Shown here: positions 1,361 to 31,185 of the stretch, piece by piece
Layout: every line of letters starts with the position of its first letter
Position numbering within the stretch: the stretch's first letter is position 1
NCBI GenBank assembly: GCA_963779755.1
Contig: CAVZZO010000001.1
Location: forward strand, 64,001 to 128,000
DNA: 64,000 nt
From: an uncultured Gemmatimonadales bacterium
GTDB lineage: Bacteria > Gemmatimonadota > Gemmatimonadetes > Gemmatimonadales > GWC2-71-9
Direction: 5' to 3'
The notes under the pieces: generated by a model
What the model was told of the DNA's origin: nothing
Database searches by the model: none
The model's input: the letters and a program-made list of their open reading frames with translations, nothing else
Program-made: the position numbers and the translations under genes

Positions 1361-4174
1361 CTAGGGCGTCGCTTCCGGCGCCTTCTTCTTGAAGTCACCC
1401 GCCTTCACGACCGTGAGTCGCGCCGGATCGAGGTACTTCTGCAACGCCTGCTGGATGTCCGCCGGCGTGAGCGCCTTGACCTTCCGTTCCATCGCGGCGT
1501 CCCAGGCCATGGTCCGGTCAAGGAAGAGCTGGTTGGCGAGACTGCCCGCCAGCTCGCGGTCCTGCGAACGGCTCACCTCGCGCGACTGCAGGTAGCCCTC
1601 CTTGGCCCTGGTCACCTCCTCCGGCGTGAACCCGTTCTTCACGGCCCGGGCGATCTCCTCGCGCATGGCCGTTTCCACCTTGTCCACGTTCTGCGGGGCA
1701 AAGATGGCATAGGCCTGGAAAATCCCGGTGGTGTCGATGGAGTTGGCGCCCAGTCCGGAGCCGACGCCGTAACTCAACCCTTCCTTCTGGCGAATGCGCA
1801 CCGCCAGCCGGGAATTGAGGAACCCGCCGCCCAGCATGTAGTTGCCCAGCACCAGGGCGGGATACTCCGGATTGTCGTCCCGGACGTGGAGGTTCTCGCC
1901 CACCAGCATGAAGGCGTTGGCCTTGTCGGGCGTGTCGATGCTGAGGGTCGTGGGCGGCGCGTCGTAGAACTCCGACGGCACCCGATCATACGACTTGGGG
2001 CTCTTCCAGCCCTGGAAAGCGTCGGCGACAATCTGCCGCACCGCGGTGCTGTCGAAGTCGCCCACCACGGCGATCTCGCCGGCGCCCAGGCCGTAGAAAT
2101 CCTGATAGAACTGCTTGACGTCATCCAGCCGCGCGTCGGTAATGGACTGGACCTGCTCCTCGGTGGTTTCCGCGTAGCGCGGATCGCCCTTGGGATAGTC
2201 CTGCAGATGCCGCCGGAACGCCTCGAACCCGCGGGCAACCGGCTCGCTCTTCTGGGATTCGAGCTGCGAGAGGCGCTCCTGCTTCAGCTCGTCGAATTCC
2301 TTGGCGTCGAAGGCGGGCTCCTTCAGCACCTCGGCCATGAGCCGCACGGCGGCCGGGAGATTCTCGCGCGTCGTCTCGATGGTCGCGGTGGCGCCGCTGA
2401 CGCTGCCGCTGATCAACGCGCGCGCCTTCAGGCGGTCGAACTCGTCCTTGATCTGCTGGCGGGTGTGATGCTGCGTCCCCCGCATCAACATGTCGCCGGC
2501 CAGGTCGCCCGCCGTCTCCCGGTTCATCAGGGCTGGCAGGCTGCCGAAGTGCAGCGACATCCGCAACTGCACCGAGTTGCCCCGGGTCTGCTTGGGCAGG
2601 AACGCGACCTTCAGGCCGCTCGCCAGGGTATCCCGGCGGGTGCGCCGGTCGATGTTCTGCGGAGACGGATCGAACGCCTCACCCTGGGCGAGAGTCGTAT
2701 CGCCCTTGTAGTCCTTCACCAGGGCGGCGACATCCGGCACCGGCGGGATCACCGCGCGGTCGGGCTTGGGCGTCGGGATGAACATGCCCAGCGTGCGGTT
2801 GGACGGTTTGAGGTAGGCCCGCGCCACCCGGAGCACATCGTCCGGCGTCACCTTCCGGATGCGGTCCCGGTTGATGAAGATGAGCCGCCAGTCGCCCATG
2901 GACCCCCACTCCGACAGATCCAGCCCCACCCGGTCGGAGGCGTTGAGCTCGAGGTCGACGTTCTTGAGCAGCGTTGCCTTGGCCCGGTCCACTTCCTCCG
3001 CCGTGGGCGGATTGGTCACCACGTCGTTCAGCGCCTGCTCCATGGCGACCCGGGCCGAGTCCAGCGACTGCTCCTGCCGGACCTGGGCATAGGCCAGCAG
3101 CACCCCCGGCTCCTTCAACTGGAAATCGAACGCGCCCGTCTCGGCGGCCAGTTTGGGCTCCACCAGCGCCTTGTAGAGGCGGCCTGAGGGGGCGTTCCCC
3201 AGCACCTGAGACAGCACGTCCACCGCGGCAAAGTCCGAGTCGGACCCGGCCGGCACATGGTATACCGCCATCGCGACCTGGACATCACCCACCCGGCGCA
3301 GCGTGACCGAACGCTCCCCGTCCTGGGTCGGCTCGGCGGTATAGGTGGGGTAGATCTTGTTGGCGCCGGTCCGGTCGGGACGGGGAATGGCCCCGAATTT
3401 CTTGACGATGAGCGCCAGCGTCCGGGCCGGGTCGAACTTGCCGGCCACCACCAGCTGCGCGTTATCCGGCTGGTAGTACTTGTGGTAGAAGGCCTGCAGC
3501 CGCTCGATGGGTACGTCCTCGATGTCCGAGCGGGCGCCGATGGTGGACTTGCCGTAGTTGTGCCACAGGAAGGCGGTGGAGAGGGTACGCTCCATGAGCA
3601 CGCCGAACGGGTCATTCTCGCCCGACTCGTACTCGTTCCGCACCACCGTCATTTCCGATTCGAGGTCCTTCTTGGCCACATAGCTGTGGGTCATGCGGTC
3701 GGCCTCGAGATCCAGCGCCCAGGCCAGGTTGCTGTCGGTGGCGGCGAAGGTCTCGAAGTAGTTGGTCCGGTCAAACCAGGTGCTCCCGTTGGGCCGGGCC
3801 CCATGCTCGGTCAGTTCCTGGGGGATGTCGGGATGATTCGGCGTCCCCTTGAACACCATGTGCTCCAGCAGGTGGGCCATGCCCGTCTCGCCGTATCCCT
3901 CGTTCCGGGAGCCGACGAAATAGGTGATGTTCACCGTGGCGGTCTGCTTGGACTGGTCGGGAAACAGCAGCACGATGAGCCCGTTGGGCAGCGTGTACTG
4001 GGTAATACCTTCGACGGTCGGGCCCTTGACTGCGCCGTTCTGCGACCGGGCCGCCGGGCGCGCCTTGGCAGCCGGTTGCTGGGCGGCGGCGGGCAGAGAC
4101 GCCGCCACGACCAGTGACAGAACCAGCGCCGCGCGAACGCGGAATGAGCCGGACGTCCCTCTGAATATGGACAT
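1361..4174 (-). CDS. M16 family zinc peptidase (PqqL/pitrilysin-like), exported
   Basis: Inverted zinc motif HLLEH in GMAHLLEHMVFKG, NGSTWFDRTNYF, second M16 half with RQKEGLSYG; signal peptide; CAGGAG upstream of ATG 4174. Confidence 0.93.
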   Translation of the reverse strand: MSIFRGTSGSFRVRAALVLSLVVAASLPAAAQQPAAKARPAARSQNGAVKGPTVEGITQYTLPNGLIVLLFPDQSKQTATVNITYFVGSRNEGYGETGMAHLLEHMVFKGTPNHPDIPQELTEHGARPNGSTWFDRTNYFETFAATDSNLAWALDLEADRMTHSYVAKKDLESEMTVVRNEYESGENDPFGVLMERTLSTAFLWHNYGKSTIGARSDIEDVPIERLQAFYHKYYQPDNAQLVVAGKFDPARTLALIVKKFGAIPRPDRTGANKIYPTYTAEPTQDGERSVTLRRVGDVQVAMAVYHVPAGSDSDFAAVDVLSQVLGNAPSGRLYKALVEPKLAAETGAFDFQLKEPGVLLAYAQVRQEQSLDSARVAMEQALNDVVTNPPTAEEVDRAKATLLKNVDLELNASDRVGLDLSEWGSMGDWRLIFINRDRIRKVTPDDVLRVARAYLKPSNRTLGMFIPTPKPDRAVIPPVPDVAALVKDYKGDTTLAQGEAFDPSPQNIDRRTRRDTLASGLKVAFLPKQTRGNSVQLRMSLHFGSLPALMNRETAGDLAGDMLMRGTQHHTRQQIKDEFDRLKARALISGSVSGATATIETTRENLPAAVRLMAEVLKEPAFDAKEFDELKQERLSQLESQKSEPVARGFEAFRRHLQDYPKGDPRYAETTEEQVQSITDARLDDVKQFYQDFYGLGAGEIAVVGDFDSTAVRQIVADAFQGWKSPKSYDRVPSEFYDAPPTTLSIDTPDKANAFMLVGENLHVRDDNPEYPALVLGNYMLGGGFLNSRLAVRIRQKEGLSYGVGSGLGANSIDTTGIFQAYAIFAPQNVDKVETAMREEIARAVKNGFTPEEVTRAKEGYLQSREVSRSQDRELAGSLANQLFLDRTMAWDAAMERKVKALTPADIQQALQKYLDPARLTVVKAGDFKKKAPEATP

Positions 4175-4250
4175 AGGTGCTCCTGGTGAGGCTCGTAACC
4201 TGTTACGGAATACAGTCAAGAAAGGGTCCCGGACCGGATGCCGCAAGCAC

Positions 4251-4279
4251 AAACAAATAGCCCCGCTTGCGCGGGGCTA
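4251..4279 (-). terminator. Intrinsic terminator closing the predicted sRNA
   Basis: 9-bp stem with GCAA tetraloop followed by a U-rich tract on the minus strand. Confidence 0.7.
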
Positions 4280-4402
4280 CTCGAACCTCGGGCGGGGAGC
4301 CCGGGTTTGTTGAGCCGGCCGGTACAGCTTGGCCGCAACAGGAGGGATAAATGGCCGGCTCATTTGTGTCGCCGGCGCCCGAAGGCGCCGGAACCAACTG
4401 AA
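4251..4402 (-). ncRNA. Predicted structured small RNA (four hairpins), family unknown
   Basis: Minus strand: CCGGCGCC-UUCG-GGCGCCGG; UGAGCCGGCC...GGCCGGCUCA with AUCCCUCCUG in the loop; AACCCGGGC-UCCCC-GCCCGAGGUU; UAGCCCCGC-GCAA-GCGGGGCUA then UUUGUUUG. A sigma54 motif sits about 12 nt upstream. Confidence 0.7.
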
Positions 4403-4412
4403 TTGATCTATC

Positions 4413-4429
4413 TGCCAACTGCGTGCCAG
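4413..4429 (-). promoter_or_regulatory. Sigma54 -24/-12 promoter
   Basis: Minus strand CTGGCACGCAGTTGGCA: exact GG-N10-GC spacing with a TGGCACG -24 box. Confidence 0.7.
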
Positions 4430-4686
4430 ATCGCCATCTCGTTCCTCCGGCAGCAGATACGTGTGAGGGGGCTGGCCGGGACCCGTCCGCCGGTCTGGAC
4501 ATTTGAGGCGTCCGTCCGTCCACTACAGGACGGTGGATCCGGCCTGAACTCCTGCAGCCGCCCCTACACCCTGTTTGATGCCTGTCCGGCGGACAGGGTT
4601 GCATGTGCTATCCTCCGTAAGATTGCGGACTTGCACCCCGCTATATTGCCGGGAAGAACACCGCGCGGGACTACTCCTCTCTTGGC

Positions 4687-5202
4687 ATGAGGCACGGCGT
4701 GGATACGGCCTTCAGCGTCACCGTCAGCAAGGACTACCTGGCATTCTCGTCGGCGCATTTCATCACCTTCGCCGGCCATCAGTGCGAGTCCCTCCACGGG
4801 CACAATTACCGGGTAGGCGTCACCGTCGGCGGGGCAGTCGACCCGGAGTGCGCGTTCGTGGTGGACTTCAGCATCCTGAAACAGATCGTCCGGCAGCTGG
4901 TCCATCCCTGGGATCACCGGGTACTTCTCCCCACCGGAAGCGCCAAGCTCGTGTTCCAGGAGGAGGGCGAGCACCTGGTGGTGGACTACCTGGGACGGCG
5001 CCGGTTTCTCTTTCCCCGTGGCGACTGCGCCCTCATCCCCATCAGCAATACCACCGCCGAGATGCTGGCCGAGCTTCTGGCACGCCAGGTCCGCGAGGCC
5101 TTCATCGAGCGGGGAGTGACCAACCTCACCTCCATCGAGATCGAGGTCGAGGAGAGCCCGGGCCAGGCGGCCGTCTACCGCATCGCGGCGGGACCGGCAT
5201 GA
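4687..5202 (+). CDS. queD: 6-pyruvoyl/6-carboxy-tetrahydropterin synthase family (COG0720), PTPS-I/III-type motif
   Basis: FSSAHF, CESLHGHNY, VDFSILK, DHR, NTTAE, VEESP motifs. Start could instead be GTG 4699. Confidence 0.85.
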   Translation: MRHGVDTAFSVTVSKDYLAFSSAHFITFAGHQCESLHGHNYRVGVTVGGAVDPECAFVVDFSILKQIVRQLVHPWDHRVLLPTGSAKLVFQEEGEHLVVDYLGRRRFLFPRGDCALIPISNTTAEMLAELLARQVREAFIERGVTNLTSIEIEVEESPGQAAVYRIAAGPA

Positions 5203-5218
5203 GCCCCAAGGAGAGCCC

Positions 5219-5575
5219 ATGACAGCAAAAGAGCGGGTCTACGGCAGGGAGGAGATCGCCGCCGAACTGAAACCCCTGAGCGGCTGGCAGGTGGAGGACG
5301 GAGCGCTGGCCCGGCATTACACCACTCGCGGCTGGCCTGCCACGCTCATGCTGGTCAACGCCATCGGGTGGATCTGCGAGTCGGCCGACCATCATCCCGA
5401 CCTGGCGGTCGGCTACAACTCGGTAGGTGTGCGCCTCTCGACCCACAGCGCCGGCGGCATCACCGCCAAGGATCTGGAGGTGGCGCGCCTGATCGAGCAG
5501 ACCGCCCTCTGGCGCCCACCGGAGGGAAGCGCGCTCCGGGGCGCTCCCGAACCGTTGATCAGAGAAGAGGCCTGA
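5219..5575 (+). CDS. Pterin-4-alpha-carbinolamine dehydratase
   Basis: DHHPDL catalytic motif and LSTHSAGGITAKDL. Confidence 0.92.
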   Translation: MTAKERVYGREEIAAELKPLSGWQVEDGALARHYTTRGWPATLMLVNAIGWICESADHHPDLAVGYNSVGVRLSTHSAGGITAKDLEVARLIEQTALWRPPEGSALRGAPEPLIREEA

Positions 5576-5599: not shown

Positions 5600-6187
5600 T
5601 CAGTCCTTTTCCCTCGGTCCTGCTTCATACACTTCCGACTCGGTCAGCACGGTCGTCATGCGGATATCCCCGGGCCCCACCGGTACTTCGGAGAACACCT
5701 GGCTCCGGTAAGCCAACGCGATGAACGGCGTGCCCGGACGGGCCCTGGCCAGCAGCCGGTCGTAGTACCCTTTCCCGTAGCCTACCCGTCCACCCGCGGG
5801 ATCGAACGCCAGCCCCGGCACCACGTAGAGATCCACCGCCTCCGGAGGGCATTGCCGCGCCGGATCCGCCAGCACCGCCGCCACCGGCTCCAGCAGCCCG
5901 AACGCGGCCGGCGCAAGCTCCTCAAGGCCGGTGATCCGGTACAGCGCCAGGTCGCCGCCGTGGGTACGCGGCACCGCCACGGCAGTGCCCTGACGCAGGG
6001 TCTGTTCGATGAGGGGCTGCGTCGGCACTTCATCGCCCACGCCCACGTAGAAGGACACCACCCGGGCCCGGCGGAATTCGGCGCGCTCCAGCAGCCGCTC
6101 CCCGATGCGCCGGTTCTTGTCGTCCCTGTCCCGCTCGGCGCTACGTGCGGCCAGCGCGGCCTGGCGCACGGCGGCTTTGCCGGTCAT
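5600..6187 (-). CDS. 5-formyltetrahydrofolate cyclo-ligase
   Basis: C-terminal part of ORF 5600-7702, from ATG 6187 (ATGA overlap with the upstream stop); FGLLEP and VVPGLAFD..GGRVGYGKGYYDR signature. Confidence 0.93.
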   Translation of the reverse strand: MTGKAAVRQAALAARSAERDRDDKNRRIGERLLERAEFRRARVVSFYVGVGDEVPTQPLIEQTLRQGTAVAVPRTHGGDLALYRITGLEELAPAAFGLLEPVAAVLADPARQCPPEAVDLYVVPGLAFDPAGGRVGYGKGYYDRLLARARPGTPFIALAYRSQVFSEVPVGPGDIRMTTVLTESEVYEAGPREKD

Positions 6188-13139: not shown

Positions 13140-14951
13140 TCAGCGCTCGAACGCCCCGCTCTGGTAGAGGCCGTCATATTCCTTTCGCAGGCTGTCGCTC
13201 AATCCCCGGAAGCGCTCCAGGTCGCCCTGGTACGCCGAATCCCTGCTGAGGTCCTGCAGGGCCAGAGGATCGGAGCGCATATCGTAGAACCCCCCCGAGT
13301 CCTTCCGGCTCAACGGGCTGATGAACTGGAAATCGTCGGTGATGATGGCGTGGGGGTCGAGATGCATGCCGTGGCCCTGTGCTACCTCGGCGAAGACCAG
13401 GGACGGAGCCGCCGGCGTTGCGCTGGTCCAGAATCGGCTCAGCGAACGGCCCGGAAGAGAATCCGCGCTCTCGACCCGGGCGAGCGCCAGCACGGTCCGG
13501 GGGATGTCCCGCAGGCTGACGACGTGGTTGACCGTCACCGCGGCAGGCACGCCGGCCGGATACCGGATGACGAGTGGCACGTGCAGCAATTGGGGATAGA
13601 CGCTGTTGCCGTGCCCGGGAAGGCCGTGCTCACCAAACTGCTCCCCATGATCCGCGGTGATGATGACGATCGTGCTGTCCGCCAGGCCGCGGCGGCGCAG
13701 TTCACGCAGCAGCCTGCCGGTGGCGCGGTCAATCTCCGCAATCGAGGCATCGTAATTGTCACGCAGCCAGGCGATTTTCTCGTCGGGGTCGTCGTTCGCC
13801 GGCTCGTGCAGCATACGGTAAGCCCCGGTGGTGGGGCGGACGAACCGTCTCGCCACGGAGTCGTCCGGGAGATAGGGGAAGTGAGCGTCGAAATAGTTCA
13901 GGAAGACGAAGAACGGCCGGTGCCGGTCCTGCCGATCCAGCCAGCCGAGAAATTCCCGGTTCACGCTCCCGGCATGTTTGCGCCCGAACTTGTTGTAGAA
14001 TCCGATGAGGTTCCGCACCCAGTTCTGGGTCAGCAGAACTTCCGTCAGCCGGGCATAATCGATCGCGGTCCCCAGCGAAGGAGGGTAATCCTCATAGTGC
14101 TCGAACCCCAGGTCGAATCCGTGCTGGGCATCCGCATAGCCGACATTCGCGGTGAAAGCGCCGGTGGCGTACCCGGCCTGGTGCAGCACCGAGGCCAGCG
14201 GGGACGTCGGACTCCGGATCGGCCGGTCATGGGCCCGATAGACCACATAGGGCCATTGTCCGGTGAACAAGGTCGCATGCGACGGCAGGGTCCATGACGC
14301 GGCGCTCATGGCCCGGGCAAAGCGTACCCCTTGCGCACTCAACCGTTCGAGCTCCGGAGTGGTCGGGCGATCGTAGCCGTAGGCGCTGAGGTCGAGCTCC
14401 CGGACCGTATCCCAGACGATCAACAGCACATTCGGGTGCTTGCCCTCGACCGGAGGACGGTCGGCTACCAGGCGGTGTTCCCGGAGAAGCCGTCCACCGG
14501 CGAGCAAGGCCGATTCCAGCATCACCAGGCCAAGCAGCCAGGGGAGGGAGCGCCCCACGAACGCCTGCACTCGCGCGCGTCCGGCGACACGCCCGGCCTG
14601 AACGCCCACACCTGCGGCCAGCAACAGGGCCACTCCCCGCTGCATGTTGGGAAAGATGAGCCACAGGAGCGGCACGACGGCAACGGCGGTGAGGATTCCG
14701 GCCCCGGCGGCGGGAGCCATCAGTCCTCTCCAGGCCCGGTGTACAGCCAGGAGAAGCAACGCGACAAATGCCAGGCAGGCCACGTCGATCACGGGAGCCA
14801 TCCATATGATATCCAGCGGGAGTCGCAGCACGCGTCCCTGACCGAAATGCTGGAAGAGGCGGACCCATCCTTCGACCAGGCCGGCGGCAAGTCCCAGCCA
14901 GAGGGTGAGGACGCCGGCCTGAAGCCACCGCCGGGAAGGATGTGCGTTCAT
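13140..14951 (-). CDS. Membrane-anchored sulfatase-like hydrolase/transferase (paralog 4)
   Basis: N-terminal TM helices; PNVLLIVWDTVR, SWTLPSHATLFTG, NYFDAHFPY, ADHGE. Confidence 0.88.
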   Translation of the reverse strand: MNAHPSRRWLQAGVLTLWLGLAAGLVEGWVRLFQHFGQGRVLRLPLDIIWMAPVIDVACLAFVALLLLAVHRAWRGLMAPAAGAGILTAVAVVPLLWLIFPNMQRGVALLLAAGVGVQAGRVAGRARVQAFVGRSLPWLLGLVMLESALLAGGRLLREHRLVADRPPVEGKHPNVLLIVWDTVRELDLSAYGYDRPTTPELERLSAQGVRFARAMSAASWTLPSHATLFTGQWPYVVYRAHDRPIRSPTSPLASVLHQAGYATGAFTANVGYADAQHGFDLGFEHYEDYPPSLGTAIDYARLTEVLLTQNWVRNLIGFYNKFGRKHAGSVNREFLGWLDRQDRHRPFFVFLNYFDAHFPYLPDDSVARRFVRPTTGAYRMLHEPANDDPDEKIAWLRDNYDASIAEIDRATGRLLRELRRRGLADSTIVIITADHGEQFGEHGLPGHGNSVYPQLLHVPLVIRYPAGVPAAVTVNHVVSLRDIPRTVLALARVESADSLPGRSLSRFWTSATPAAPSLVFAEVAQGHGMHLDPHAIITDDFQFISPLSRKDSGGFYDMRSDPLALQDLSRDSAYQGDLERFRGLSDSLRKEYDGLYQSGAFER

Positions 14952-14963
14952 GCCCGGACCTCG

Positions 14964-16778
14964 TCAGTGGGTGAGAACGGCGCGCCGGAGAAGCCCACGC
15001 AATTCCTCAAGGGTGACCCGGCTGGAATCCGCCCCGGACAGATCGAATCGCTCAGCGGGATCGTGCCGGGCGCTGAACAACTCTTCGCCACCCCCGGAGT
15101 TCCGGATATAGCGGTAACCCAGGGCGACCAGCGCTTGCATGTTACCCCGGCTTACGGGATACCAGGCGGGCGTGCGGATGCCGCGACTCACTTCCGAGAG
15201 CACCGGGGACGCCGAATCACCCAGGCCGCCTTGCCAGAACCGGGCCAGGGAGTTCCCCGGAATGGGGTTGTCTCCTCCGAATCCGGCCAGATCCACGAGT
15301 GTCGCCGCCACGTCGCGCAGGCTCACCGCCCGGTTCACCGTCACTGCCGCCGGGACGCGGGGCGGGTACACGATCAGCAGCGGCACTTCGACGGAGGGCC
15401 GGTAGAGTGAATTTCCATGATCGAACACTCCGTGCTCGCCGAACTCCTCGCCGTGGTCGGCGGTGATGACCACCACCGTGTTCTGCAGCAGGCCGTGCCG
15501 GCCCAGCTCCGCGAAGAGCCGTCCCAGTTCATGATCCAGGTAGGCGAGCGCGCCGTCGTACTGGTCAATTTCCGCTGCGACGGTGGCCGGTGAGGGCAGC
15601 ACCTTGCTGGGGTGCGCGAGATACCGGTGCAGCGGGCTCAGATTGTTGGGGCGCGGGACGCCGCCAAAGCGCCGGTCGTAAGGTGCCGGGGACAGATACG
15701 GATCGTGCGCGTCATAATAGTTGAGAAAGGCAAAGAAGGGCCGCTCAGGCGACCGGCCTGCCCAGCGGAGAAACGAGCGGGAGATTTCCGGCGCCCCGAT
15801 GCGCACGAGGTGCTGATCGCTGCCAATCAGCCGTCGCAGCCGGAGGCTTCGGTCCAATTGACGGCCGATGGAGGTGCAGGCGAGGATCACGCGCGGCGAG
15901 ACGGGGAAGTCGCGATAATGTGCGAAACCGCGCTCCAGGCCAAACTCCCAGCTCAGGTACCCGACATTGGCCACGAAGGCGCCGGTGCGATAACCCCGGC
16001 TGGCGAATACTTCCGCCAGCGTAGGCACCCGGCCGTCCAGCGGTGTGAGCCAGTCGGCCGACAGGTCATGAGGATACCGCCCGGTGAGTAGACTGGCATG
16101 GGACGGGAGGGTCCACGGGGCAGTGGAGAAGGGATGCGCGAAGCGGGTCCCGTGCAGAGCGAACCTCTCCAGCTCCGGGGTGGTCTCTCGATCGTACCCG
16201 TAGAGACTCAGGTGGTCGGCCCGGACCGTGTCCAGAATCAACAGCAGAATATTGGGGTGCCCCGGAAGAGGCGCCGGGAGCCGGGCCGAGGCCCGCTGCT
16301 CCCGCCACCATCCCAGCCCGAGGCTGGCGCCCGCGATCAGAAGCACCAGCACCGCCAGGGATGTCAGCACCGGCAGGGCCCGCCGCTCGATCGCCGCACC
16401 GCGCTTGTCGAGCAGCCGCCCTCCCTGCCACCCGATACCGGCCGCCAGCAGCACGGCCGCAGGACGGGAAAACCAGGGAACCATGAACAGGAGCGCGCTG
16501 GCGCCGAGCCAGATGAAGATCCCCAGCCCGAAGCGAAGCGGCATGAGTCCGGGCCGGAACCGGGCAAGGGCCGCGATGAGCACGGCCGGCGGAAGAAATA
16601 GGACCAGATCGCCCACGGGGGCCATCCAGCCGAACTGCATGCTCACATGAATCAGCTCGCCGAAGCCCAACCGGCGCAGCAGCAGCACGCCGGCCTCCAG
16701 CAGGCCGGTGGCCAGCCCGATGGCAAGCCCGGTCAGCAACCAGGTTCGCGGCCGGAGGGCCGGGGAGGGAGCGTTCAC
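14964..16778 (-). CDS. Membrane-anchored sulfatase-like hydrolase/transferase (paralog 3)
   Basis: PNILLLILDTVRADH, PWTLPSHASLLTG, NYYDAHDPY, ADHGE. Confidence 0.88.
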   Translation of the reverse strand: MNAPSPALRPRTWLLTGLAIGLATGLLEAGVLLLRRLGFGELIHVSMQFGWMAPVGDLVLFLPPAVLIAALARFRPGLMPLRFGLGIFIWLGASALLFMVPWFSRPAAVLLAAGIGWQGGRLLDKRGAAIERRALPVLTSLAVLVLLIAGASLGLGWWREQRASARLPAPLPGHPNILLLILDTVRADHLSLYGYDRETTPELERFALHGTRFAHPFSTAPWTLPSHASLLTGRYPHDLSADWLTPLDGRVPTLAEVFASRGYRTGAFVANVGYLSWEFGLERGFAHYRDFPVSPRVILACTSIGRQLDRSLRLRRLIGSDQHLVRIGAPEISRSFLRWAGRSPERPFFAFLNYYDAHDPYLSPAPYDRRFGGVPRPNNLSPLHRYLAHPSKVLPSPATVAAEIDQYDGALAYLDHELGRLFAELGRHGLLQNTVVVITADHGEEFGEHGVFDHGNSLYRPSVEVPLLIVYPPRVPAAVTVNRAVSLRDVAATLVDLAGFGGDNPIPGNSLARFWQGGLGDSASPVLSEVSRGIRTPAWYPVSRGNMQALVALGYRYIRNSGGGEELFSARHDPAERFDLSGADSSRVTLEELRGLLRRAVLTH

Positions 16779-18592
16779 CGGATGCTGGTGGGCAGGAGCT
16801 CGCGGGCTCGCTGCTGGAACCGGGCCATCACGGCCGTGGAATCGGCCGCAAGATTACGGCGCTCTTCCGGATCGACCTGAGTGTCGTATAACTCGACCTG
16901 ACCCGATTGTTCCACGATATACTGCCAATGCCGGCTCACCAGCGATGCTACCCAGCCGCGTGAGGCGGGCCAGTTGGCCGGGACAGTGGACCGCTGCGCC
17001 AGTTCGGCGATTCCGAGGCTGGTCGAATCCGGCGGGGCCAGCAGCGATCGCCCGGGAAAGAGCGTATCCGGCAATCCAGCGGCCTCCGCCAGAGTCGTCG
17101 TCAGCCGTTCCAGGCTCACGGCGTCCTGACGGCGGACTCCGGCCGCGAGGTGACCGGGCCAGAACAGGATCAGCGGGATGTCGACCTGGTCGCGATACAG
17201 GCTGTGCCCATGGAAGTAGAGCCCGTGTTCCCCGAAGCTCTCGCCGTGATCGCTGGTGACGATGACGAGGGTATTCCGTAACCGGCCCCGGCGCTTCAAC
17301 CCCTGGAACAGGGAATCGATCTGGGCGTCGAGATAGAGAATGGACTCATCGTAGGCATCGAGATCGGCACGGATCTTCTCGGGCGGAATCCTGGGGATGT
17401 TTCCGGCGATCGCCCCCAGCTGAATTCCGGGTTCACCCGGCGGGCGCCGGCTGGGGTCGGAAAAGCGGCCGGCGTAGGGAGCGGGCGGGAAGAGCGGGCC
17501 GTGCACATCGAGGTAATTCACGAATGCGAAGAATGGCCGCCGGGGATGATGATCGAGCCATCGCAGCAGGTCCCGGTTGATGTCGGCGGCGGACTTGCGC
17601 CCGGGAATGTCGCGGGGACCGAATCGGGGCCAGACGTCATACGCAAGCTGCCGGCCCAGGACGGTCCGGACCAGGGCATCGCCGAGGTTACCGAAGTAAT
17701 CCTCGTAATGCGCAAAGCCCCGCGCGAGTCCGGTTTCCCGGCCACACCAGTAGATGTTGGCGATAAACCCGCCGGTGGCATAACCCGCCGCGGCGAGCGC
17801 TTCGGCCAGGACCGGAAATCGGCCATCGAGATAGGGTCGCCGCAACACCCCGGCACGGTGCTCGTGCTGCTGCCGGCCGGTCATGATGGTGGCATGGCTG
17901 GGCAGGGTCCAGGACGAACTCGCGGTAGTATGTTCGAACATCCATCCCCGGCTTGCGAGCGTGTCGAGGAATGGGGACGTCGGCCGGGAATATCCGTAGA
18001 GGGACAGGTGGTCCGCCCGCTGAGTATCCATGACCAGCAACAGGATATTGGGGCGGCCCTCGGGCGCCGGCGGGAGGGCCGCAAACACGCGCGCCTCCTT
18101 GAAGCGCGTACCGAGGGTGACGGCGAGGGCGATCAGACCGACCAGGCCCAGCGTCCAGGGGAGAGCACGGCGGGAGGTGGCGAGCCACCAGTCACGGCGC
18201 CGGCGGTAGGCCCGGGTGAGCACCACGGCAAAGCCCAGCCCGAGTAGCAGCGAAGCCACCTGGTTCAGCACGACGCGCTCCAGCGACGCGGCCAGGTAGC
18301 CGCCCAACCCCACCAGAAGGAAGACCAGTCCCACATCCCAGCGCACCCGCGGGGCCGTGAGGGCAAGTCCGCCGGCCACCAATCCAACCACCCCGAATAT
18401 GGCCCCGTACACGAGCGGCGTCACCCAGAGGATGGGGGCGGCCGTCCCGTTGAGCCAGGAGAGGGCGCCGGGGATGAAGGTCCAGGCCATGGCCTCCAGC
18501 CCTTCGATCAGGCCGTAGATCAGCCCCAGCCAGATCCCGAGCAATAACATGTCACGGAGCCGGACCGTTACCGGTCCAGGTGAGGTAGTCAT
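16775..18592 (-). CDS. Membrane-anchored sulfatase-like hydrolase/transferase (paralog 2)
   Basis: PNILLLVMDTQRADH, SWTLPSHATIMTG, NYLDVHGP, SDHGE. Confidence 0.88.
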   Translation of the reverse strand: MTTSPGPVTVRLRDMLLLGIWLGLIYGLIEGLEAMAWTFIPGALSWLNGTAAPILWVTPLVYGAIFGVVGLVAGGLALTAPRVRWDVGLVFLLVGLGGYLAASLERVVLNQVASLLLGLGFAVVLTRAYRRRRDWWLATSRRALPWTLGLVGLIALAVTLGTRFKEARVFAALPPAPEGRPNILLLVMDTQRADHLSLYGYSRPTSPFLDTLASRGWMFEHTTASSSWTLPSHATIMTGRQQHEHRAGVLRRPYLDGRFPVLAEALAAAGYATGGFIANIYWCGRETGLARGFAHYEDYFGNLGDALVRTVLGRQLAYDVWPRFGPRDIPGRKSAADINRDLLRWLDHHPRRPFFAFVNYLDVHGPLFPPAPYAGRFSDPSRRPPGEPGIQLGAIAGNIPRIPPEKIRADLDAYDESILYLDAQIDSLFQGLKRRGRLRNTLVIVTSDHGESFGEHGLYFHGHSLYRDQVDIPLILFWPGHLAAGVRRQDAVSLERLTTTLAEAAGLPDTLFPGRSLLAPPDSTSLGIAELAQRSTVPANWPASRGWVASLVSRHWQYIVEQSGQVELYDTQVDPEERRNLAADSTAVMARFQQRARELLPTSIR

Positions 18593-20400
18593 GGCGTACT
18601 CCTGATGGCACCGGTGGCGCGCAACACCGCCTCCAGCCGCGCCATCTCTGCCTTCCCCTCGGCGGTATCGGCCAGGTTGTTCATTTCGGCGGTATCATGG
18701 TCGAAATCATACAGTTCCAACCCACCCTTCCCATCCCGGATCAGGCGCCACCCATCGAGCACCACCGCCCGCATGTCGCCCCGGCTCACCGGCGTGTTGG
18801 GCGGAAGACGAGGCGCCCAGTCGACCTCGCTTACCAGGGTATCCTGACCGGCGTCCGGGCCCAGGTGATTCCAGAGGCGCGCCAGCGAGCGGCCCGGGAA
18901 CGGGGCGTCGCCGAGGCCGGTGAGATCGGCCAACGTGGCAGCGATATCGCGGGTCGAGACCGGCTGATCCACTACCCGCCCGGCCGGAATCGACCGGGGC
19001 CAGCGGATCAGGAGGGGGACCTCCACGGAGGCCCGGTACAGCGAATTCCCGTGAAAGAAGACGCCGTGTTCGCCAAACTCCTCCCCATGATCCGACGTCA
19101 CGACAACCACCGTGCTGTCCAGAATCCCCCGCTGCCGCAATGCCTCGAACAGCTCGCCCAGACGGGCATCGAGCGCGAGGATGGACTCGTCATACGCGGC
19201 GCGGGCCGCGTGGATGACGGCCGGCGACCACTCCCGCCCGGGCGTGTCCTCCTCCAGCGCGTGGATCCGGGCCAGATCCTCCGGCCCTGAAAACCTCCCG
19301 GCAAACGGAGCCGCAGGCTGATAGGGGTCGTGCGCATCCATGTAGTTCAGGAATGCGAAAAATGGCCTCCCGCCCCGGGATCGGGCCAGCCAGCGCAGAA
19401 AGGCACTATTGATGTCCGCGGCGTGCACCCGGAGCATGGACCGCTCCCGGTAGCGGCTGTGGAGGATAAAGCGATTGAAGGCCGAGGAGAGAAGAACCTG
19501 GGCTGGCGTCACGGGATAGTCGCGGTAGTAACCGAAGCCGCGAGCCAGCCCTGTCTGGCGGCTGGCATACTGTGTATTGGCAGCGAAGCCCACGGTGACC
19601 CACCCGTGTCGGCCCAGTGTTTCGGCGAGCGTCGGAAAGGTGGCATCCAGCGGCGACAGCCAGCCGGTGGACAACTCATGCGGCCAGTGGCCGGTGAAGA
19701 TGCTGGCGTGAGCCGGTAGCGTCCAGGGAGCGGGAGATATGGCCCGCCGGAAAAGCACGCCGTCACGGGCGAAACGTTCCAGCGTCGGCGTGGTCGCCCG
19801 CTCATAGCCATAGGCGCTCAAGTCGAGAGCCCGAACCGTGTCGAGAATGATCAGGAGTACGTTGGGCGCGCCGGTGGCCACCGCCTCACGCGAATGCCGG
19901 CGTACCGTCGCCTGCCGCTGCACTTCCAATCCGCCGGCCAGGAGGAGTACCAGCCCTCCCAGGGGAATCAGCGTGGCGGAGACGACCCGCCGGAGGATCG
20001 CCGGCCACCGGCGGGCCAGGCGCGCCGCCTGCACACCGGCGCCAACCGCCAGGAGCACTGCCGCGACCCGGGCAAGCGGCCCGTACTGCAGGGTCAAGGT
20101 GAAAACGCCCAGTGCCGTGTAGCAGCCCAGAGCGAAGGGGAGACCGATTCGGCCCCGGCTCGCCCGCGCGGCCAGGGCGATGATCAGACCCAGGACCAGG
20201 AAGGTCCCCAGGTCTGCAAGGGGAGCCATCCAGACCACGTCCGTCGGCAGGAAGACGAGCCGTCCCAGCAGAAAACGACGGACCCCGAAGAGCGTCGCTT
20301 CGCCGAGACCCGTCAGGATGCCGGCCCAGGCAGCGAGCCGCACGTGATCGCGAACCGGGGGAGCCGGGGACTTCGCCTGCCGGGCCGGAATGCCTGTCAT
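18589..20400 (-). CDS. Membrane-anchored sulfatase-like hydrolase/transferase (paralog 1)
   Basis: PNVLLIILDTVRA, PWTLPAHASIFTG, NYMDAHDPY, SDHGE; ATG 20400 chosen as start. Confidence 0.88.
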   Translation of the reverse strand: MTGIPARQAKSPAPPVRDHVRLAAWAGILTGLGEATLFGVRRFLLGRLVFLPTDVVWMAPLADLGTFLVLGLIIALAARASRGRIGLPFALGCYTALGVFTLTLQYGPLARVAAVLLAVGAGVQAARLARRWPAILRRVVSATLIPLGGLVLLLAGGLEVQRQATVRRHSREAVATGAPNVLLIILDTVRALDLSAYGYERATTPTLERFARDGVLFRRAISPAPWTLPAHASIFTGHWPHELSTGWLSPLDATFPTLAETLGRHGWVTVGFAANTQYASRQTGLARGFGYYRDYPVTPAQVLLSSAFNRFILHSRYRERSMLRVHAADINSAFLRWLARSRGGRPFFAFLNYMDAHDPYQPAAPFAGRFSGPEDLARIHALEEDTPGREWSPAVIHAARAAYDESILALDARLGELFEALRQRGILDSTVVVVTSDHGEEFGEHGVFFHGNSLYRASVEVPLLIRWPRSIPAGRVVDQPVSTRDIAATLADLTGLGDAPFPGRSLARLWNHLGPDAGQDTLVSEVDWAPRLPPNTPVSRGDMRAVVLDGWRLIRDGKGGLELYDFDHDTAEMNNLADTAEGKAEMARLEAVLRATGAIRSTP

Positions 20401-20490
20401 GCCACCGCGCACAGATGGGCCGGGGCCGGCGAGCAAGTCGTCACCGGCCGGCCGGGAAATCCCTTGTACCCGTCAGGCTGAAGCATGTTG

Positions 20491-22257
20491 TCAACAGTCA
20501 ACATTCTGTTGTGTGGAAACAACACATGGAGGCTTGGCACTGCTTGCCGTTCGCGGATGGCGCACCTGATCCCGGGGCGCAAAGATCCGAATGGGAGGGT
20601 TGACCGACGGATAGTCCAGCCGAGGCCGATGCACCCAGGGGAGCAGCGGCGGGGTCTGGAAGGTCGCTGCCGGCACGTAGGAGAGGGAGCCGGCCACCAG
20701 CCGCCGGTACAGCGCCGGAGGAAACGAGGCATCGAAAGGTGCACCGGGGCGGCTGGTGTGGTCGGGCATGATGATGAGAAAACGGGGCCGGCGTTCCTGC
20801 CATCCGGCGATGATCTCCGCCACCTTGGCGGCACTGGTGTCATGCTGGAAGAAGAGACCGTGGTATTCGGTGCTGCGGTCGGTCTGCACCCCGGCCGGTA
20901 GCGGTGGAAGCTTCTGGCTGGCCCCGAAGTATTCCACGTGGTCGCCTGGCTCGAGTCGCTCCGCCAGCCAGGCCGCGGCGCTCCATCGGGCATCCCGCAG
21001 CATGGCGTAGGTCAGATCGATTCCGCGCAGCAGGTTGAGGCCCACCGCCGCAGTCAGCAGGAGCAGGCTGGCCAGCCGGAGGTCAACACGCGATCGGGCC
21101 AGACCCAGTGCCGCGGCGTGACCGGCGAAGATCGCCAGCAATGCCGCCGCCGGGAGGACGTAACGCAGCTGGCCCGACCGGAGCGTGAGAAAGATGAATG
21201 CCAGATAGGACACGGCCGGGAGCACCATCCAGGCCTGTCTTCCCCCCCCGCGGACGATCGCCCACAGGCCGGCCGCAGCGAGCGCGATGCCGGGCCAGGT
21301 GAGGCTCTGGACCAGGTAGCCGGACATGTCGCGTAGGTACCTGAGGTTGCCATCCAGAGTATACGGGAAGGCTATCGGAATGGTCTTCCCCGCGACCGGG
21401 GCGGCTTCCAGCCGACCGGTCGTGAAGGCGAGATGTGCCAGGTAACGTCCGGGTTCAATGAAGAACCCGCTTCCCAGACCCAGCGCAATGAACGCGGCAA
21501 GCAGTCCGCAGGCCCAGGGCGCCCACCAGAGCGGGCGGTGCCAGTCTCGCGGGCCGAGGCCATCGGCGCGAGGGGCAAACAGCGCCGCGGGCACGAAACC
21601 CACGACGGCGCCCAGCGCCGACTCCTTGGTGGCCATGGCGAGACCCAGGGCCACACCCAGCAGAATTGCCCGTCGCCGGGTAACACCGTACTTGACCATC
21701 CGCGCAAGCGCGGCATACCCCAGCATCACGAAGCACAGCATGGGGACATCCACGTTGCCCGTCCGGGCATAATAGAACATGGGATAGAGGGTCATCACGC
21801 TGATCGCGGCCAGGACCCCCGATCGTGGGCCCCAGATCATTCGGGCGGCGGAGTAGGCTCCAAACACGGCACCCAGCGCCAGCACGACAGTGACCAGGTG
21901 AGCCAGAACGGTGAGGACGCGCAGCGTGGAGACCGGATCGGCCAAACCGAACGGGTAGTTGGGACTGGGCGCCCGGAGCTTTCCCGTCAGATACAGGTAG
22001 CCGAGATAGGGGCTGTAGGCGGCATCGGCCAGATAGCTGTACAGCAGGGGATACCCGAAGTTCCGGTCGGGCCTCGGGTGGAGCATGTTACCGATCTCGG
22101 CGATCGGGCCAAGCGGCGATTCGTCGTCTACCGCCCAGGCCTTGACCCGATCGGGCGCGGTGGCCACCGGCGCGCCCCACCACACAGCAGGGAGATACAG
22201 AACCAGCGCCGCCAGCACCAGCCAGGCACCGGGAGACAACCTGCCGCGGGACATCAC
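20491..22257 (-). CDS. GT-C fold glycosyltransferase (ArnT/PMT-like, lipid-carrier dependent)
   Basis: Polytopic membrane protein; DDE in the first loop, YPLLY, NVDVP, GLAMATKE, RYVLP. Confidence 0.8.
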   Translation of the reverse strand: MMSRGRLSPGAWLVLAALVLYLPAVWWGAPVATAPDRVKAWAVDDESPLGPIAEIGNMLHPRPDRNFGYPLLYSYLADAAYSPYLGYLYLTGKLRAPSPNYPFGLADPVSTLRVLTVLAHLVTVVLALGAVFGAYSAARMIWGPRSGVLAAISVMTLYPMFYYARTGNVDVPMLCFVMLGYAALARMVKYGVTRRRAILLGVALGLAMATKESALGAVVGFVPAALFAPRADGLGPRDWHRPLWWAPWACGLLAAFIALGLGSGFFIEPGRYLAHLAFTTGRLEAAPVAGKTIPIAFPYTLDGNLRYLRDMSGYLVQSLTWPGIALAAAGLWAIVRGGGRQAWMVLPAVSYLAFIFLTLRSGQLRYVLPAAALLAIFAGHAAALGLARSRVDLRLASLLLLTAAVGLNLLRGIDLTYAMLRDARWSAAAWLAERLEPGDHVEYFGASQKLPPLPAGVQTDRSTEYHGLFFQHDTSAAKVAEIIAGWQERRPRFLIIMPDHTSRPGAPFDASFPPALYRRLVAGSLSYVPAATFQTPPLLPWVHRPRLDYPSVNPPIRIFAPRDQVRHPRTASSAKPPCVVSTQQNVDC

Positions 22258-23252
22258 TGACCGGCCGCGCCCACGGGTCGGTTTTCGGGCGCGCCGGTGA
22301 TCTCCGGACTCAGCATCGAACGCTGCACCGCCCAGAGCTCACGCTGAATCATGAAGCCTTGCTGCAGCACGACGGCCATGAGAAAGAATACGATGCCCAG
22401 GATCACGAGCGAGATGCTGAGCAGCGCCATGTACACCGAGACCTCATGCAGCACATAGTAGATCACCGCGGCTACAAAGGACGCGATCCCGAGCGCCAGG
22501 GTAACCATGCTCAGGGCCAGGACATAACGCACGGGATGCGCGAAGAGGCTGAACAGGCTGTGGGAGACGATCAGACGCCGGATGCGCGAGGAGCTCTTGC
22601 GCTTCACCCGCTGTCCCTGGTGCTTGTACTCCTTCCACTCCAGCAGGGCCGGTATCTCCCGGATCCGGGCGCCAAAGGCGCTGCTCTTGAGAATGACCTC
22701 CAGATGGAACTCCTTGCCGTCCTCCGAGAGCGGCAGTGACTGGATCAGCCGCCGCCGGTAGGCCCGCGTCATGCCGGTGTTCATGGTCACCGCGTTGGAC
22801 ATCGCGGCCCGGATCACCAGGTTCCCCAGCCGGCTGAGCCAGACCCGTTTGAAGGGGACGTGCCGATAGCCACCCCCCGGCAGATGCGGACTGGCCACCA
22901 CGATATCCGTTTCCGGCCAGCGCTGCATGGCGCCAACCAGCTCGTGCACGATCCGGTCTCCCCAGGACAGGTCGATTTCCGTCGTCACGATGATCTCGCC
23001 GCGCGCCCGGATGATGCCCGTGCGGAGGGCATACCCCCGCCCACGGTTGTGGGGGTAGCCCAGCACCCGCAGGCGGGGTTCGATGGCTTCCAGTCGCCGG
23101 GCGATGGCCTCGGACCCGTCGGTGGAGCCGTCGTTCACCACGATCAGTTCCCAGTTACCCTCGAGGGTCTGCAGCTGTTCCAGGAGCTGCGTGATGGCAT
23201 GCTCCAGGATTCCGGCTTCGTTATAGAACGGACAAACTACCGAGATGTCCAT
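22254..23252 (-). CDS. GT2 polyprenol-phosphate glycosyltransferase (DPM1/ArnC/GtrB-like)
   Basis: SVVCPFYNE, VNDGSTD, NRGRGYA, EID in place of DxD, two C-terminal TM helices. Confidence 0.87.
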   Translation of the reverse strand: MDISVVCPFYNEAGILEHAITQLLEQLQTLEGNWELIVVNDGSTDGSEAIARRLEAIEPRLRVLGYPHNRGRGYALRTGIIRARGEIIVTTEIDLSWGDRIVHELVGAMQRWPETDIVVASPHLPGGGYRHVPFKRVWLSRLGNLVIRAAMSNAVTMNTGMTRAYRRRLIQSLPLSEDGKEFHLEVILKSSAFGARIREIPALLEWKEYKHQGQRVKRKSSSRIRRLIVSHSLFSLFAHPVRYVLALSMVTLALGIASFVAAVIYYVLHEVSVYMALLSISLVILGIVFFLMAVVLQQGFMIQRELWAVQRSMLSPEITGAPENRPVGAAGQ

Positions 23253-23276
23253 AACGCCTCCCCCGCGAAGAGCAGG

Positions 23277-25193
23277 TCAGAGCTGCCCCCGTCGATCCAG
23301 CGCCGTTCGGAACCACAACTCCAGCATGACCAGACTGAACACCTGCTTGGCGACCAGGAACTCGCCCTGGGCCAGCGCGTTCCGGAGCCGGGCGACGGCC
23401 TCCGGACGGAACAGGCCGCGTTCGCGAACCACGCGATCCGACAGCGTGTCTTCCATGATGTCCCGGAACCTCGGATGACCCAGGAAATGCTCCAGCGGCA
23501 CATAAAACGGCATCTTGCGCCGCTCCACTGCTTCGGTTGGAAGCAGCCGGCGGGCATAGGCCCGTAGCAGATACTTGGTCGCGCCGCCGCGAAGTTTGAG
23601 GCGGGGCGGCACCCGTAGCACGTATTCCACCAGGCGATGATCCAGAAAGGGCACGCGAGCCTCGATGCCGCTGGCCATCGACATCTTGTCCTGCTTCGTC
23701 AGAATATCCTCCGGCAGCCAGTCCCGGAACTGCAGGTCGATCACCCGGTTGAGGATCGGCGCGCGGGCGGTGAGAGCCCGGGGCGACGGATTCTCCAGGG
23801 TATGTCCATTCAGCCGGGCGCGGAATTCATCCTGGTACAACCCGGCGGTATCGCGTGGGTCGAAGAGCGAAATCAGATGGTGGTACGCCTCCGCCAGCTG
23901 CGGCGGATCCAGCAGCCGCAGGAAGTCCATCACCTTTCGCTTCCCCCGCTGGCCCAGCGCGGCCGGATAGTCGAACGCCAGATTGAGCACCCCCGCCGGC
24001 GTGAGCGCCACCGCCGGCTCCAGGAGACCGCGTCGGATCAGGGCCGGCATGAACCGGGCCAACTGCTCCCCCCGGACCAGGGCACGGTGGAAGAGATAGC
24101 CGCCCAGGGTCTCGTCGGCTCCCTCGCCCGCGAGGATGACCGTCACCTGGCGCTTGGCCTCACGGGCCAGCTGAAACATGGGGATGACGATGGGGTCTCC
24201 CAGCGGCTCGTCCAGGTGCCAGGCGATCCGGGGCAGAAGGTCTACATCCTCGGCCCGGCAGGCGATCTCGGTGTGCCGGCACCCCAGGCGGCGCGCCGTT
24301 TCCGCCGCCGCCGCCAGCTCATCATGCTGGTAGTCAAAGCCGACGGTGAAGGTGCGCACCGGATCGGCCAGCTGCTGCGCCATGACCGCGACGATGGTGC
24401 TGGAGTCGATGCCCCCGCTGAGGTAGGCGCCCAGCGGGACCTCCGAAACAAGGCGCATCCGGACGCTGCGCTCGAACTGCTCGGCGAATCCCTCGAGATA
24501 CTCCTCGTCGCTCGCGGGGAAGGGGCCGGAATAGAGCTCCGGCTCCCAATAGCGCTCCAGCACCACCCGGCCATCTTCGACCGTGAGATAGTGCGCCGCC
24601 GGCAGCTTGCGAAGCTCCCGGAGCATGCCCCCGGGCCCCGGCACGAAGCGAAGCGCCAGATAGGCGTCCACCCCCGCCGGATCGAGCGTAGGCTGCCAGC
24701 CACGGTAGCGTAGAATGGCCTTGAACTCGGAGCCGAACAGAAACCGCTCGCCCAACTGCGCGTAATACATCGGCTTGATGCCCAGACGGTCGCGAGCGAG
24801 GAAGAGACGACGGCGCTGCTTGTCCCAGATCGCCAGGCCCCACATACCGTTCAGACGCTCCAGACATCTCGGCCCCATGTCCTCGTACAGATGGAGCACC
24901 ACCTCGGTATCGCCCTGGGTACGGAAGCGATGGCCTCGTGACAGCAACTCCTCCCGGAGCTCGCGGTAGTTGTAGATCTCGCCGTTGAAGACGATCACCA
25001 GGGAGCCGTTCTCGTTTTCGATCGGCTGCCGGCTGCCGGCAACATCGATGATACTGAGCCGCCGCATGCCGAGCCCAATCCCGTCGGCTTCGTAGGCTCC
25101 GCAGTCGTCCGGGCCCCGATGCACCAGGGTCGCGGTCATCTCCGCCAGCAGCCCTTCCTGGTGGACGCCCAGATACCCGCAGATCCCGCACAT
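23277..25193 (-). CDS. asnB: Asparagine synthase-like glutamine amidotransferase (likely glycan amidation)
   Basis: MCGI N-terminus, HRGPD, FNGEIYN, LSGGIDS, GEGADE, EARVPFLD. Confidence 0.93.
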   Translation of the reverse strand: MCGICGYLGVHQEGLLAEMTATLVHRGPDDCGAYEADGIGLGMRRLSIIDVAGSRQPIENENGSLVIVFNGEIYNYRELREELLSRGHRFRTQGDTEVVLHLYEDMGPRCLERLNGMWGLAIWDKQRRRLFLARDRLGIKPMYYAQLGERFLFGSEFKAILRYRGWQPTLDPAGVDAYLALRFVPGPGGMLRELRKLPAAHYLTVEDGRVVLERYWEPELYSGPFPASDEEYLEGFAEQFERSVRMRLVSEVPLGAYLSGGIDSSTIVAVMAQQLADPVRTFTVGFDYQHDELAAAAETARRLGCRHTEIACRAEDVDLLPRIAWHLDEPLGDPIVIPMFQLAREAKRQVTVILAGEGADETLGGYLFHRALVRGEQLARFMPALIRRGLLEPAVALTPAGVLNLAFDYPAALGQRGKRKVMDFLRLLDPPQLAEAYHHLISLFDPRDTAGLYQDEFRARLNGHTLENPSPRALTARAPILNRVIDLQFRDWLPEDILTKQDKMSMASGIEARVPFLDHRLVEYVLRVPPRLKLRGGATKYLLRAYARRLLPTEAVERRKMPFYVPLEHFLGHPRFRDIMEDTLSDRVVRERGLFRPEAVARLRNALAQGEFLVAKQVFSLVMLELWFRTALDRRGQL

Positions 25194-29925: not shown

Positions 29926-29930
29926 GATGA

Positions 29931-31145: not shown

Positions 31146-31185
31146 TTCCTTGCACGATATTCGGGTTTTCCGGGGTTCTGGCAGT

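Follow-up and report, generated by a model that had tools for sequence, protein, structure and literature searches.

A candidate stand-alone small RNA with a sigma54-type promoter motif and C-rich loops in a Gemmatimonadales genome

Several small RNAs (sRNAs) with C-rich loops are described in the excerpts of the literature that we cite here. The cuckoo RNAs of Alphaproteobacteria (CcsR/RSs0680, SmelC397, and others) consist of two to four adjacent hairpins, each with a loop that contains CCUCCUCCC and resembles an anti-Shine-Dalgarno (anti-SD) sequence (PMC4615179). 6C from Actinobacteria and sX13 from Xanthomonas are sRNAs, of high G+C content or structured in another way, whose C-rich loops bind G-rich mRNA sites, and 6C does so independently of a chaperone (PMC6486639, PMC3771888). 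The same type of binding is described for the RNAIII/Rsa RNAs of Staphylococcus alongside sX13 (PMC4615179). For other sRNAs, it is the promoter that is distinctive: transcription by sigma54 together with an enhancer-binding protein (EBP) is described for GlmY (PMC3162934) and for Qrr (PMC10162802). Pxr, from Myxococcus and other myxobacteria, is a stand-alone, intergenic RNA of ~110 nucleotides (nt) with a predicted sigma54 promoter and a stable multi-stem-loop fold (PMC5568312). According to the same excerpted account, pxr always stands beside the sigma54-dependent regulator gene nla19 and is defined by its position between nla19 and an NADH dehydrogenase gene, and membership also asks for sequence homology in stem-loops SL1 and SL2 (PMC5568312). 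Here we analyze a 64,000-nt stretch of DNA (hereafter, the window) from an uncultured Gemmatimonadales bacterium, which carries a candidate for a structured RNA of this general kind on its minus strand at 4428-4248.

We tentatively propose, with rather less than even confidence, that this unit encodes a stand-alone, sigma54-driven non-coding RNA of ~150 nt that acts in trans, through C-rich loops, on G-rich ribosome-binding sites. Sigma54 RNA polymerase would bind the −24/−12 element at 4428-4413, and an EBP bound at repeated GTCC/GGAC sites 80-195 bp upstream would activate the promoter. The transcript would start near 4402, end at a GCAA-loop terminator around 4250, and fold into three hairpins plus the terminator. 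The exposed AUUUAUCCCUCCU (in SL2) and UCCCC (in SL3) could then pair with the G-rich Shine-Dalgarno (SD) regions of some mRNAs, and such pairing would block ribosome binding or alter mRNA stability. The trans-action step is the least secure part of this proposal. From the sequence we infer transcription, dependence on sigma54, independence from the adjacent M16 peptidase gene, trans action, and targets. In support of the proposal, a stretch of 180 nt carries promoter, hairpins, and terminator one after another on the same strand, in the following order (positions are those of the window):

4428-4413, minus strand: sigma54-type −24/−12 element TGGCACGCAGTTGGCA, with GG at 4427/4426 and GC at 4415/4414 (GG-N10-GC)
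4391-4372, minus strand: stem-loop 1 (SL1), an 8-bp G+C stem with a C(UUCG)G tetraloop (loop at 4383-4380) and an ensemble pairing probability of ~1
4362-4311, minus strand: SL2, a perfect 10-bp stem with arms at 4362-4353 and 4320-4311 that are 100% complementary in an inverted-repeat search
4307-4284, minus strand: SL3, a 9-bp stem with one bulge and a UCCCC loop at 4298-4294
4283-4248, minus strand: intrinsic terminator, a 13-bp stem (8 G-C pairs) and GCAA tetraloop spanning 4283-4254, then UUUGUG

These elements are real, and they fit together without contradiction as a non-coding unit on the minus strand. Reading the minus strand, we recovered at its expected position every element that an earlier, sequence-only reading of this DNA (the first-pass annotation) had listed. 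SL1 is followed by the linker CGACACAAAU and SL2 by the linker ACAAA. The linkers GCCGGCGACACAAA and GCCGGCUCAACAAA form a direct repeat, with one copy behind SL1 and one behind SL2, and they are partly unpaired in the ensemble (0.38-0.43). SL2 encloses a weak inner hairpin and the unpaired AUUUAUCCCUCCU (4352-4340), with CCCUCCUG at 4346-4339. Only the minus strand has the UUCG and GNRA tetraloops as well as the G-U pairs, and the earlier statement that both stable tetraloops and the U tract agree with the strand of the promoter holds for both the minus-strand sequence and its fold. No protein gene ends ahead of the terminator on the minus strand. Its stem is the longest among 32 terminator-like sites in the 60 kb of the window that were scanned (all except 40001-44000).

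The fold of this unit is unusually stable. Its 158-nt stretch has a minimum free energy (MFE) of −85.2 kcal/mol, compared with −58.8 ± 4.1 kcal/mol for 200 dinucleotide shuffles, none of which was as stable (0/200; z = −6.46). In a GC-adjusted MFE scan of 5108 segments of 158 nt, covering both strands, only two other loci surpassed the candidate. Each of these is flanked by convergent genes, an arrangement in which a terminator is to be expected. The C-rich stretches, which the first-pass annotation placed in loops, are indeed predicted to be accessible: in the ensemble fold, the mean unpaired probability is 0.89 for CCCUCCUG and close to 1 for the UCCCC loop. CCUCC is the core anti-SD sequence of the 16S 3′ end. 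By analogy with sRNAs that use C-rich loops, anti-SD pairing would be the mechanism of action.

The predicted promoter also agrees with what had been proposed. A sigma54-type element with GG-N10-GC spacing is present, and from its position the transcription start site is predicted near 4402. It has both the −24 GG and the −12 GC by which membership among sigma54-dependent genes is defined. We found no sigma70-like promoter in 3500-5500, a region that includes the sequence ahead of the hairpins. One rpoN and nine EBPs are given for Gemmatimonas aurantiaca (supplement file 1 of PMC3162934, in excerpt); thus, the sigma54 machinery exists in this phylum.

The candidate matches no RNA family in Rfam. 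Rfam 15 gave no gathering-level match anywhere in the window, in agreement with the first-pass annotation, which had recognized no named family. At E ≤ 10, there were 4 matches in 3900-4900 and 17 in 4240-4440, all far below threshold. The best of these was BjrC68 (RF02353), at 22.2 bits against a gathering threshold of 39, which covers SL3 and the terminator (4315-4248). All the others fall on the terminator hairpin.

The unit likewise shows no coding signal. Two longer open reading frames (ORFs) overlap it, one of 133 amino acids on the minus strand (4203-4604) and one of 150 amino acids on the plus strand (4238-4690). Their third-position GC is 0.58 and 0.65, respectively, compared with 0.82-0.90 in neighboring genes, and neither has a Pfam match. 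Searched against a protein library, the plus-strand ORF yielded 40 word candidates, none of them at E ≤ 0.01, and the minus-strand ORF had no match among 1.84 billion representatives. These translated-ORF searches are a weak negative, because neither ORF is in the libraries even for the source genome. Composition, Pfam, and the lack of relatives in the two protein libraries nevertheless bear out the earlier view that there is no credible ORF here.

It is highly improbable that the locus is instead a small protein gene. One such gene could be a 28-codon ORF on the minus strand (4363-4277), inside the RNA, which stops exactly at the foot of the terminator. However, this ORF has no SD sequence, its AUG lies within the 10-bp stem of SL2, and its third-position GC is ~0.67 (hand count) against 0.82-0.90 in real genes. 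The other could be a 16-codon ORF on the plus strand, MAGSFVSPAPEGAGTN (4351-4401, ATG at 4351). There, the C-rich stretch appears as its reverse complement, AGGAGGGAUAAAUG, so that AGGAGGGAUAA precedes the ORF, and the resulting SD plus ATG (AGGAGGGATAAATG) is among the strongest SD-to-ATG arrangements of the window. No promoter or terminator is evident for this ORF, and we therefore take it to be a by-product of CCUCC, since any CCUCC creates GGAGG on the opposite strand. Neither of the longer overlapping ORFs lends support to a protein gene, as they have no relatives.

The observations that weigh against a stand-alone, sigma54-driven, trans-acting RNA concern its promoter, its terminator, its strand, its conservation, and its targets. 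We scored promoters against the sigma54 consensus TGGCACG-N4-TTGCW. TGGCACGCAGTTGGCA departs from it by one mismatch, a T to G change at about −14. With one mismatch at most, the motif has two matches in 64 kb, against 0.58 expected, and two or more matches arose in 13 of 100 shuffles; with up to two mismatches, nine matches were found and 9.07 expected. The sigma54 motif alone is weak evidence, within chance expectation. The motif is notable only for its position, ~10 nt upstream of SL1 and on the strand of the terminator. Among the 55 window ORF translations that were scanned, none has a Sigma54_activat (PF00158) domain. The rpoN gene of this genome is located outside the window.

The U tract of the terminator is broken by a G. 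Terminator-like sites occur at chance level, with 11, 13, and 8 found in the three parts of the scan against 8.2, 7.4, and 9.5 expected. Canonical terminators are thus no commoner than chance in this genome, which makes their use at this locus uncertain. Furthermore, the plus strand folds almost equally well (z = −5.02). For this reason, the strand was chosen by the two tetraloops (UUCG and GCAA), the G-U pairs of the terminator, the U tract, and the promoter.

The candidate unit sits inside a 512-bp gene-free gap, flanked by an M16 peptidase gene (minus strand, start codon at 4174) and a divergent PTPS/QueD-family gene (plus strand, 4687-5202). The genome belongs to Gemmatimonadota, and the G+C content of the window is ~0.62-0.73. 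The genes around the gap are:

1361-4174, minus strand: M16 peptidase gene, with ATG at 4174 and AGGAG ahead of the start
4687-5202, plus strand: PTPS/QueD-family gene
5219-5575, plus strand: pterin-4a-carbinolamine dehydratase gene
5600-6181, minus strand: 5-formyl-tetrahydrofolate (5-formyl-THF) cyclo-ligase gene

An S9 prolyl oligopeptidase gene and a phosphofructokinase gene follow further along, beyond the cyclo-ligase gene. The best relatives of the M16 peptidase share 63-68% identity with it and are proteins named Gemmatimonadales or Gemmatimonadetes. At 90% identity, its cluster has a single member, on a single contig (2.37 Mb); thus, the protein collection contains no close relative of the source genome.

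The search for homologs of the candidate covered 80 M16 ortholog loci, each including 4-kb flanks; 14 of these loci are labeled Gemmatimonadota or Longimicrobiales. Comparisons of the region upstream of M16 used the 13 Gemmatimonadota loci that have upstream sequence. Searches of the 80 loci with the 201-nt unit (blastn and nhmmer) returned only matches of 13-25 nt with E values of at least 1.4. A single-sequence covariance model (R1), also run on these loci, recognized only the candidate itself, at 199 bits; the next best score was 17.9 bits (locus L052). When 10 of the 14 Gemmatimonadota loci were searched with filters off, the best match was in locus L014 at 2786-2950 (14.1 bits); we rejected this match as a tandem GCGGAGAAC-repeat hairpin. 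No paralogs of the candidate were found within the window.

The surroundings of M16 also differ among relatives. A sigma54 motif is absent upstream of M16 in all 13 Gemmatimonadota loci, where the M16 genes follow other genes after short spacers. The PTPS and dehydratase genes adjoin M16 in 0 of the 80 loci, which means that the local gene order is not shared. Across 742,830 bases from the relatives' loci, the motif with at most one mismatch occurs once, upstream of a protein gene, and this sole occurrence was accordingly rejected as an instance of a near-consensus sigma54 motif joined to a structured RNA. The collection of homologs that the first-pass annotation had proposed therefore came back empty, both for the 80 M16-linked loci and for the translated-ORF searches, a small and distant sample. 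The first-pass annotation had counted a lack of conservation or covariation among relatives as a refutation; the result is negative in this M16-linked sample, which does not refute conservation or covariation.

These results bear on whether the unit is a gene at all. We regard it as unlikely, while granting it an appreciable chance, that the unit is no gene but a group of G+C-rich palindromes, brought together by chance or left as a relic, in the long intergenic region between divergent genes, and that the sigma54-like hexadecamer is coincidental. Such palindromes could be the leftovers of old gene ends, protein-binding DNA palindromes, or a transcription insulator. The motif frequency fits chance, both strands fold well, and the genome has other very stable intergenic hairpins; in addition, the searches made detected no conservation, and the M16 synteny is not shared by relatives. 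However, the other strong folds all lie between convergent genes, whereas the candidate occupies a divergent promoter region in which no transcript needs termination. Two special tetraloops, G-U pairs, a U tract, and a promoter all on one strand also argue against a chance cluster. A motif with at most one mismatch would turn up by chance within ~60 nt upstream, in the right orientation, in ~3 of 10,000 cases, although this estimate is post hoc.

The unit lies directly upstream of the M16 gene on the shared strand, and its terminator ends 80 nt ahead of the ATG. It could accordingly be a cis-acting leader, a reading that we judge clearly unlikely. The sigma54 promoter would then drive the gene for the exported M16 peptidase, the structured 228-nt 5′ region with its terminator would be an attenuator, and the short RNA would merely result when transcription ends prematurely. 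The SD region of M16 (CAGGAG) has its complement in the loop sequence CUCCUG, which fits a leader, as does the poor −10 box (TACGAG) of what may be the gene's own promoter:

4219-4192, minus strand: TTGACT-N16-TACGAG, a possible M16 promoter, downstream of the terminator and outside the RNA

A perfect palindrome, CGTAACAGGTTACG (4207-4194), fills the spacer between the TTGACT and TACGAG boxes and could be an operator. The position of this putative promoter, after the terminator, argues against a leader, and so does its resemblance to the promoter of the M16 ortholog in a Gemmatimonadales relative (locus L003), where TTGACT-N16-TATATC stands at a similar distance (1 of the 13 loci inspected). 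When the whole of 4405-4150 is folded, the four modules persist, and the M16 SD sequence is not paired with the C-rich loop. Neither the sequence nor the fold shows an antiterminator, in the upstream part of the RNA, that could compete for the terminator's 5′ arm, and a riboswitch or attenuator reading was rejected on this ground. Neither a sigma54 motif nor a comparable leader occurs in any of the 13 Gemmatimonadota M16 loci. The putative downstream promoter, the persisting modules, and the missing antiterminator therefore favor a separate sRNA gene over an M16 leader, although some transcripts may read through into M16.

The predicted targets provide no support for trans action. Seed-only duplexes of seed 1 averaged −6.9 kcal/mol both at the 38 start regions of the window and in the coding background, and those of seed 2 gave −10.0 kcal/mol at the starts versus −11.3 kcal/mol in the coding background. 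Target prediction with the loop seeds, a check put forward in the first-pass annotation, thus showed no enrichment at the 38 translation-initiation regions over coding sequence. At the 38 starts, whose positions are assumed, the SD core is present as a 4-mer in 12 and as a 5-mer in 7. Within the window, the seeds match best at an aconitase-family gene and at lon (CAGGGGGAGGAA, −15.3 kcal/mol). A full-length duplex calculation of targets was discarded, since it produced meaningless long-loop duplexes.

That target complementarity is not enriched would also fit a real sRNA with another logic, which we consider improbable. Such an RNA would use an unrecognized type of promoter, or would act by binding a protein (Hfq, for instance, at the ACAAA linkers and 3′ U tail). 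It shares the evidence from structure and terminator with the trans-acting sRNA proposed above, and the direct repeat of the linkers behind SL1 and SL2 is in its favor. On the other hand, the search of 3500-5500 for a sigma70-like promoter was negative, the RNA has no GGA-type or other known protein-sponge motif, no Rfam sponge family scores above threshold, and the linkers are only partly unpaired.

If the unit is a sigma54-driven sRNA gene, as we propose, its activator may bind in the gap itself, and a second promoter in the window may respond to it. The two features concerned are:

4482-4597, no strand: candidate enhancer (upstream activating sequence) region with repeated half-sites, between the divergent promoters
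50515-50500, minus strand: second near-consensus sigma54 element, TGGCACGATGGCTGCT, with at most one mismatch, just upstream of lon

The candidate enhancer region contains the palindrome CTGTCCGCCGGACAG (within 4581-4597), CCGTCC-N6-GGACGG (4533-4516), and GACCGGCGGAC (4495-4485). Six half-sites of the form GGAC[AG]G / C[CT]GTCC are spread from ~80 to 195 bp upstream of the predicted start site. No other place in the window has as many as six within 130 nt (mean 0.23), although the motif was defined post hoc, which biases the enrichment upward. It is just as possible that the region serves the divergent PTPS gene.

The element upstream of lon stands at a plausible promoter position for that gene, as its predicted start site is ~50 nt ahead of the ATG (start codon at 50439). 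GGACGG-type half-sites occur upstream of lon too (to about 50720). The 10-mer GACCGGCGGA has three copies in the window, two of which are upstream of sigma54-like elements (50630-50621 and 4495-4486). Judged by these shared motifs, the candidate unit and lon may share an activator. A bolder extension, which we offer as a long shot and think quite improbable, is that the unit is the first riboregulator of Gemmatimonadota, in a small sigma54/EBP regulon with lon. It would be an anti-SD mimic in a genome in which strong SD sequences seem to be rare, would selectively silence the minority of strong-SD genes, and would form a feed-forward or feedback loop in proteolysis, with an exported M16 peptidase adjacent. 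This idea is based on GACCGGCGGA and GGACGG-type half-sites upstream of both near-consensus elements and on the place of lon (CAGGGGGAGGAA) among the two best seed matches. We found no literature on small RNAs in Gemmatimonadota, in a search that did not extend to subscription journals.

The window and its relatives contain other stable hairpins, which are built from repeats. The most stable folds of the window are very long short-repeat hairpins at 52690-52800 (GGGAUCGGGGAUCGGGAAUCGGG...) and 47830-47900 (GGAUUCAGGAUUC...). They sit between convergent gene pairs (protein kinase and E1 dehydrogenase genes, and GGDEF and lon genes) and are probably bidirectional terminators or REP-like elements. 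Tandem GCGGAGAAC and GCTGCGA(G/A) repeat hairpins also occur just downstream of M16 in a Gemmatimonadaceae relative (L014, 2800-2920 and 2660-2740). Hairpins made of repeats thus seem to be a common feature of gene ends in this phylum.

Two further gene groups stand out in the window. Four tandem paralogous genes on the minus strand (13140-20436), each encoding ~600 amino acids with sulfatase domains, are adjoined by glycosyltransferase, asparagine synthase, and polysaccharide-synthesis genes (20491-34691). Together, these genes look like a large envelope or exopolysaccharide cluster. At 60385-63867 (minus strand), three adjacent ORFs carry GCS2 (glutamate-cysteine ligase family 2), Methyltransf_33 (histidine-specific methyltransferase), and FGE-sulfatase plus DinB_2 domains, a set that we take to be the EgtA/EgtD/EgtB domains of the ergothioneine pathway.

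The candidate is a well-formed single-genome prediction of a familiar kind, and its value is mainly that it is clean and directly testable. If expressed, it would provide an entry point into post-transcriptional control in Gemmatimonadota. It would also be one more sigma54-driven sRNA and a further independent instance of C-rich loops that resemble an anti-SD, and it would leave the current view of how such RNAs work unchanged.

Each of the closest described systems shares some features with the candidate and differs in others. The best Rfam match is BjrC68, an sRNA of Bradyrhizobiaceae. This likeness includes the GCAA-loop terminator, but is mostly that of a generic G+C-rich terminator, and it leaves the 5′ two thirds of the candidate uncovered. 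Pxr resembles the candidate in its combination of a sigma54-type promoter with a multi-stem-loop structure. However, the neighbors of the candidate are M16 and PTPS genes, no PF00158 domain is encoded among the 55 ORFs, and the phylum is a different one. Rfam showed no similarity between the two either.

Like the cuckoo RNAs, the candidate is a row of hairpins that presents a C-rich, anti-SD-like motif. Unlike in the cuckoo RNAs, this motif is not repeated from loop to loop: 4402-4250 contains one CCUCC-bearing CCCUCCU, one UCCCC, and no CCUCCUCCC, and the loop of SL1 is UUCG. The type of promoter differs as well, CcsR promoters being dependent on RpoHI/HII. For 6C, sX13, and RNAIII/Rsa, no Rfam model is among the matches at E ≤ 10, and taxa and promoters differ, which leaves an analogy only. 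GlmY and Qrr likewise have no Rfam match to the candidate, and their structures and seed types are different. Thus, if real, the candidate would represent a new family of a known kind, apart from Pxr, the cuckoo RNAs, 6C, and sX13.

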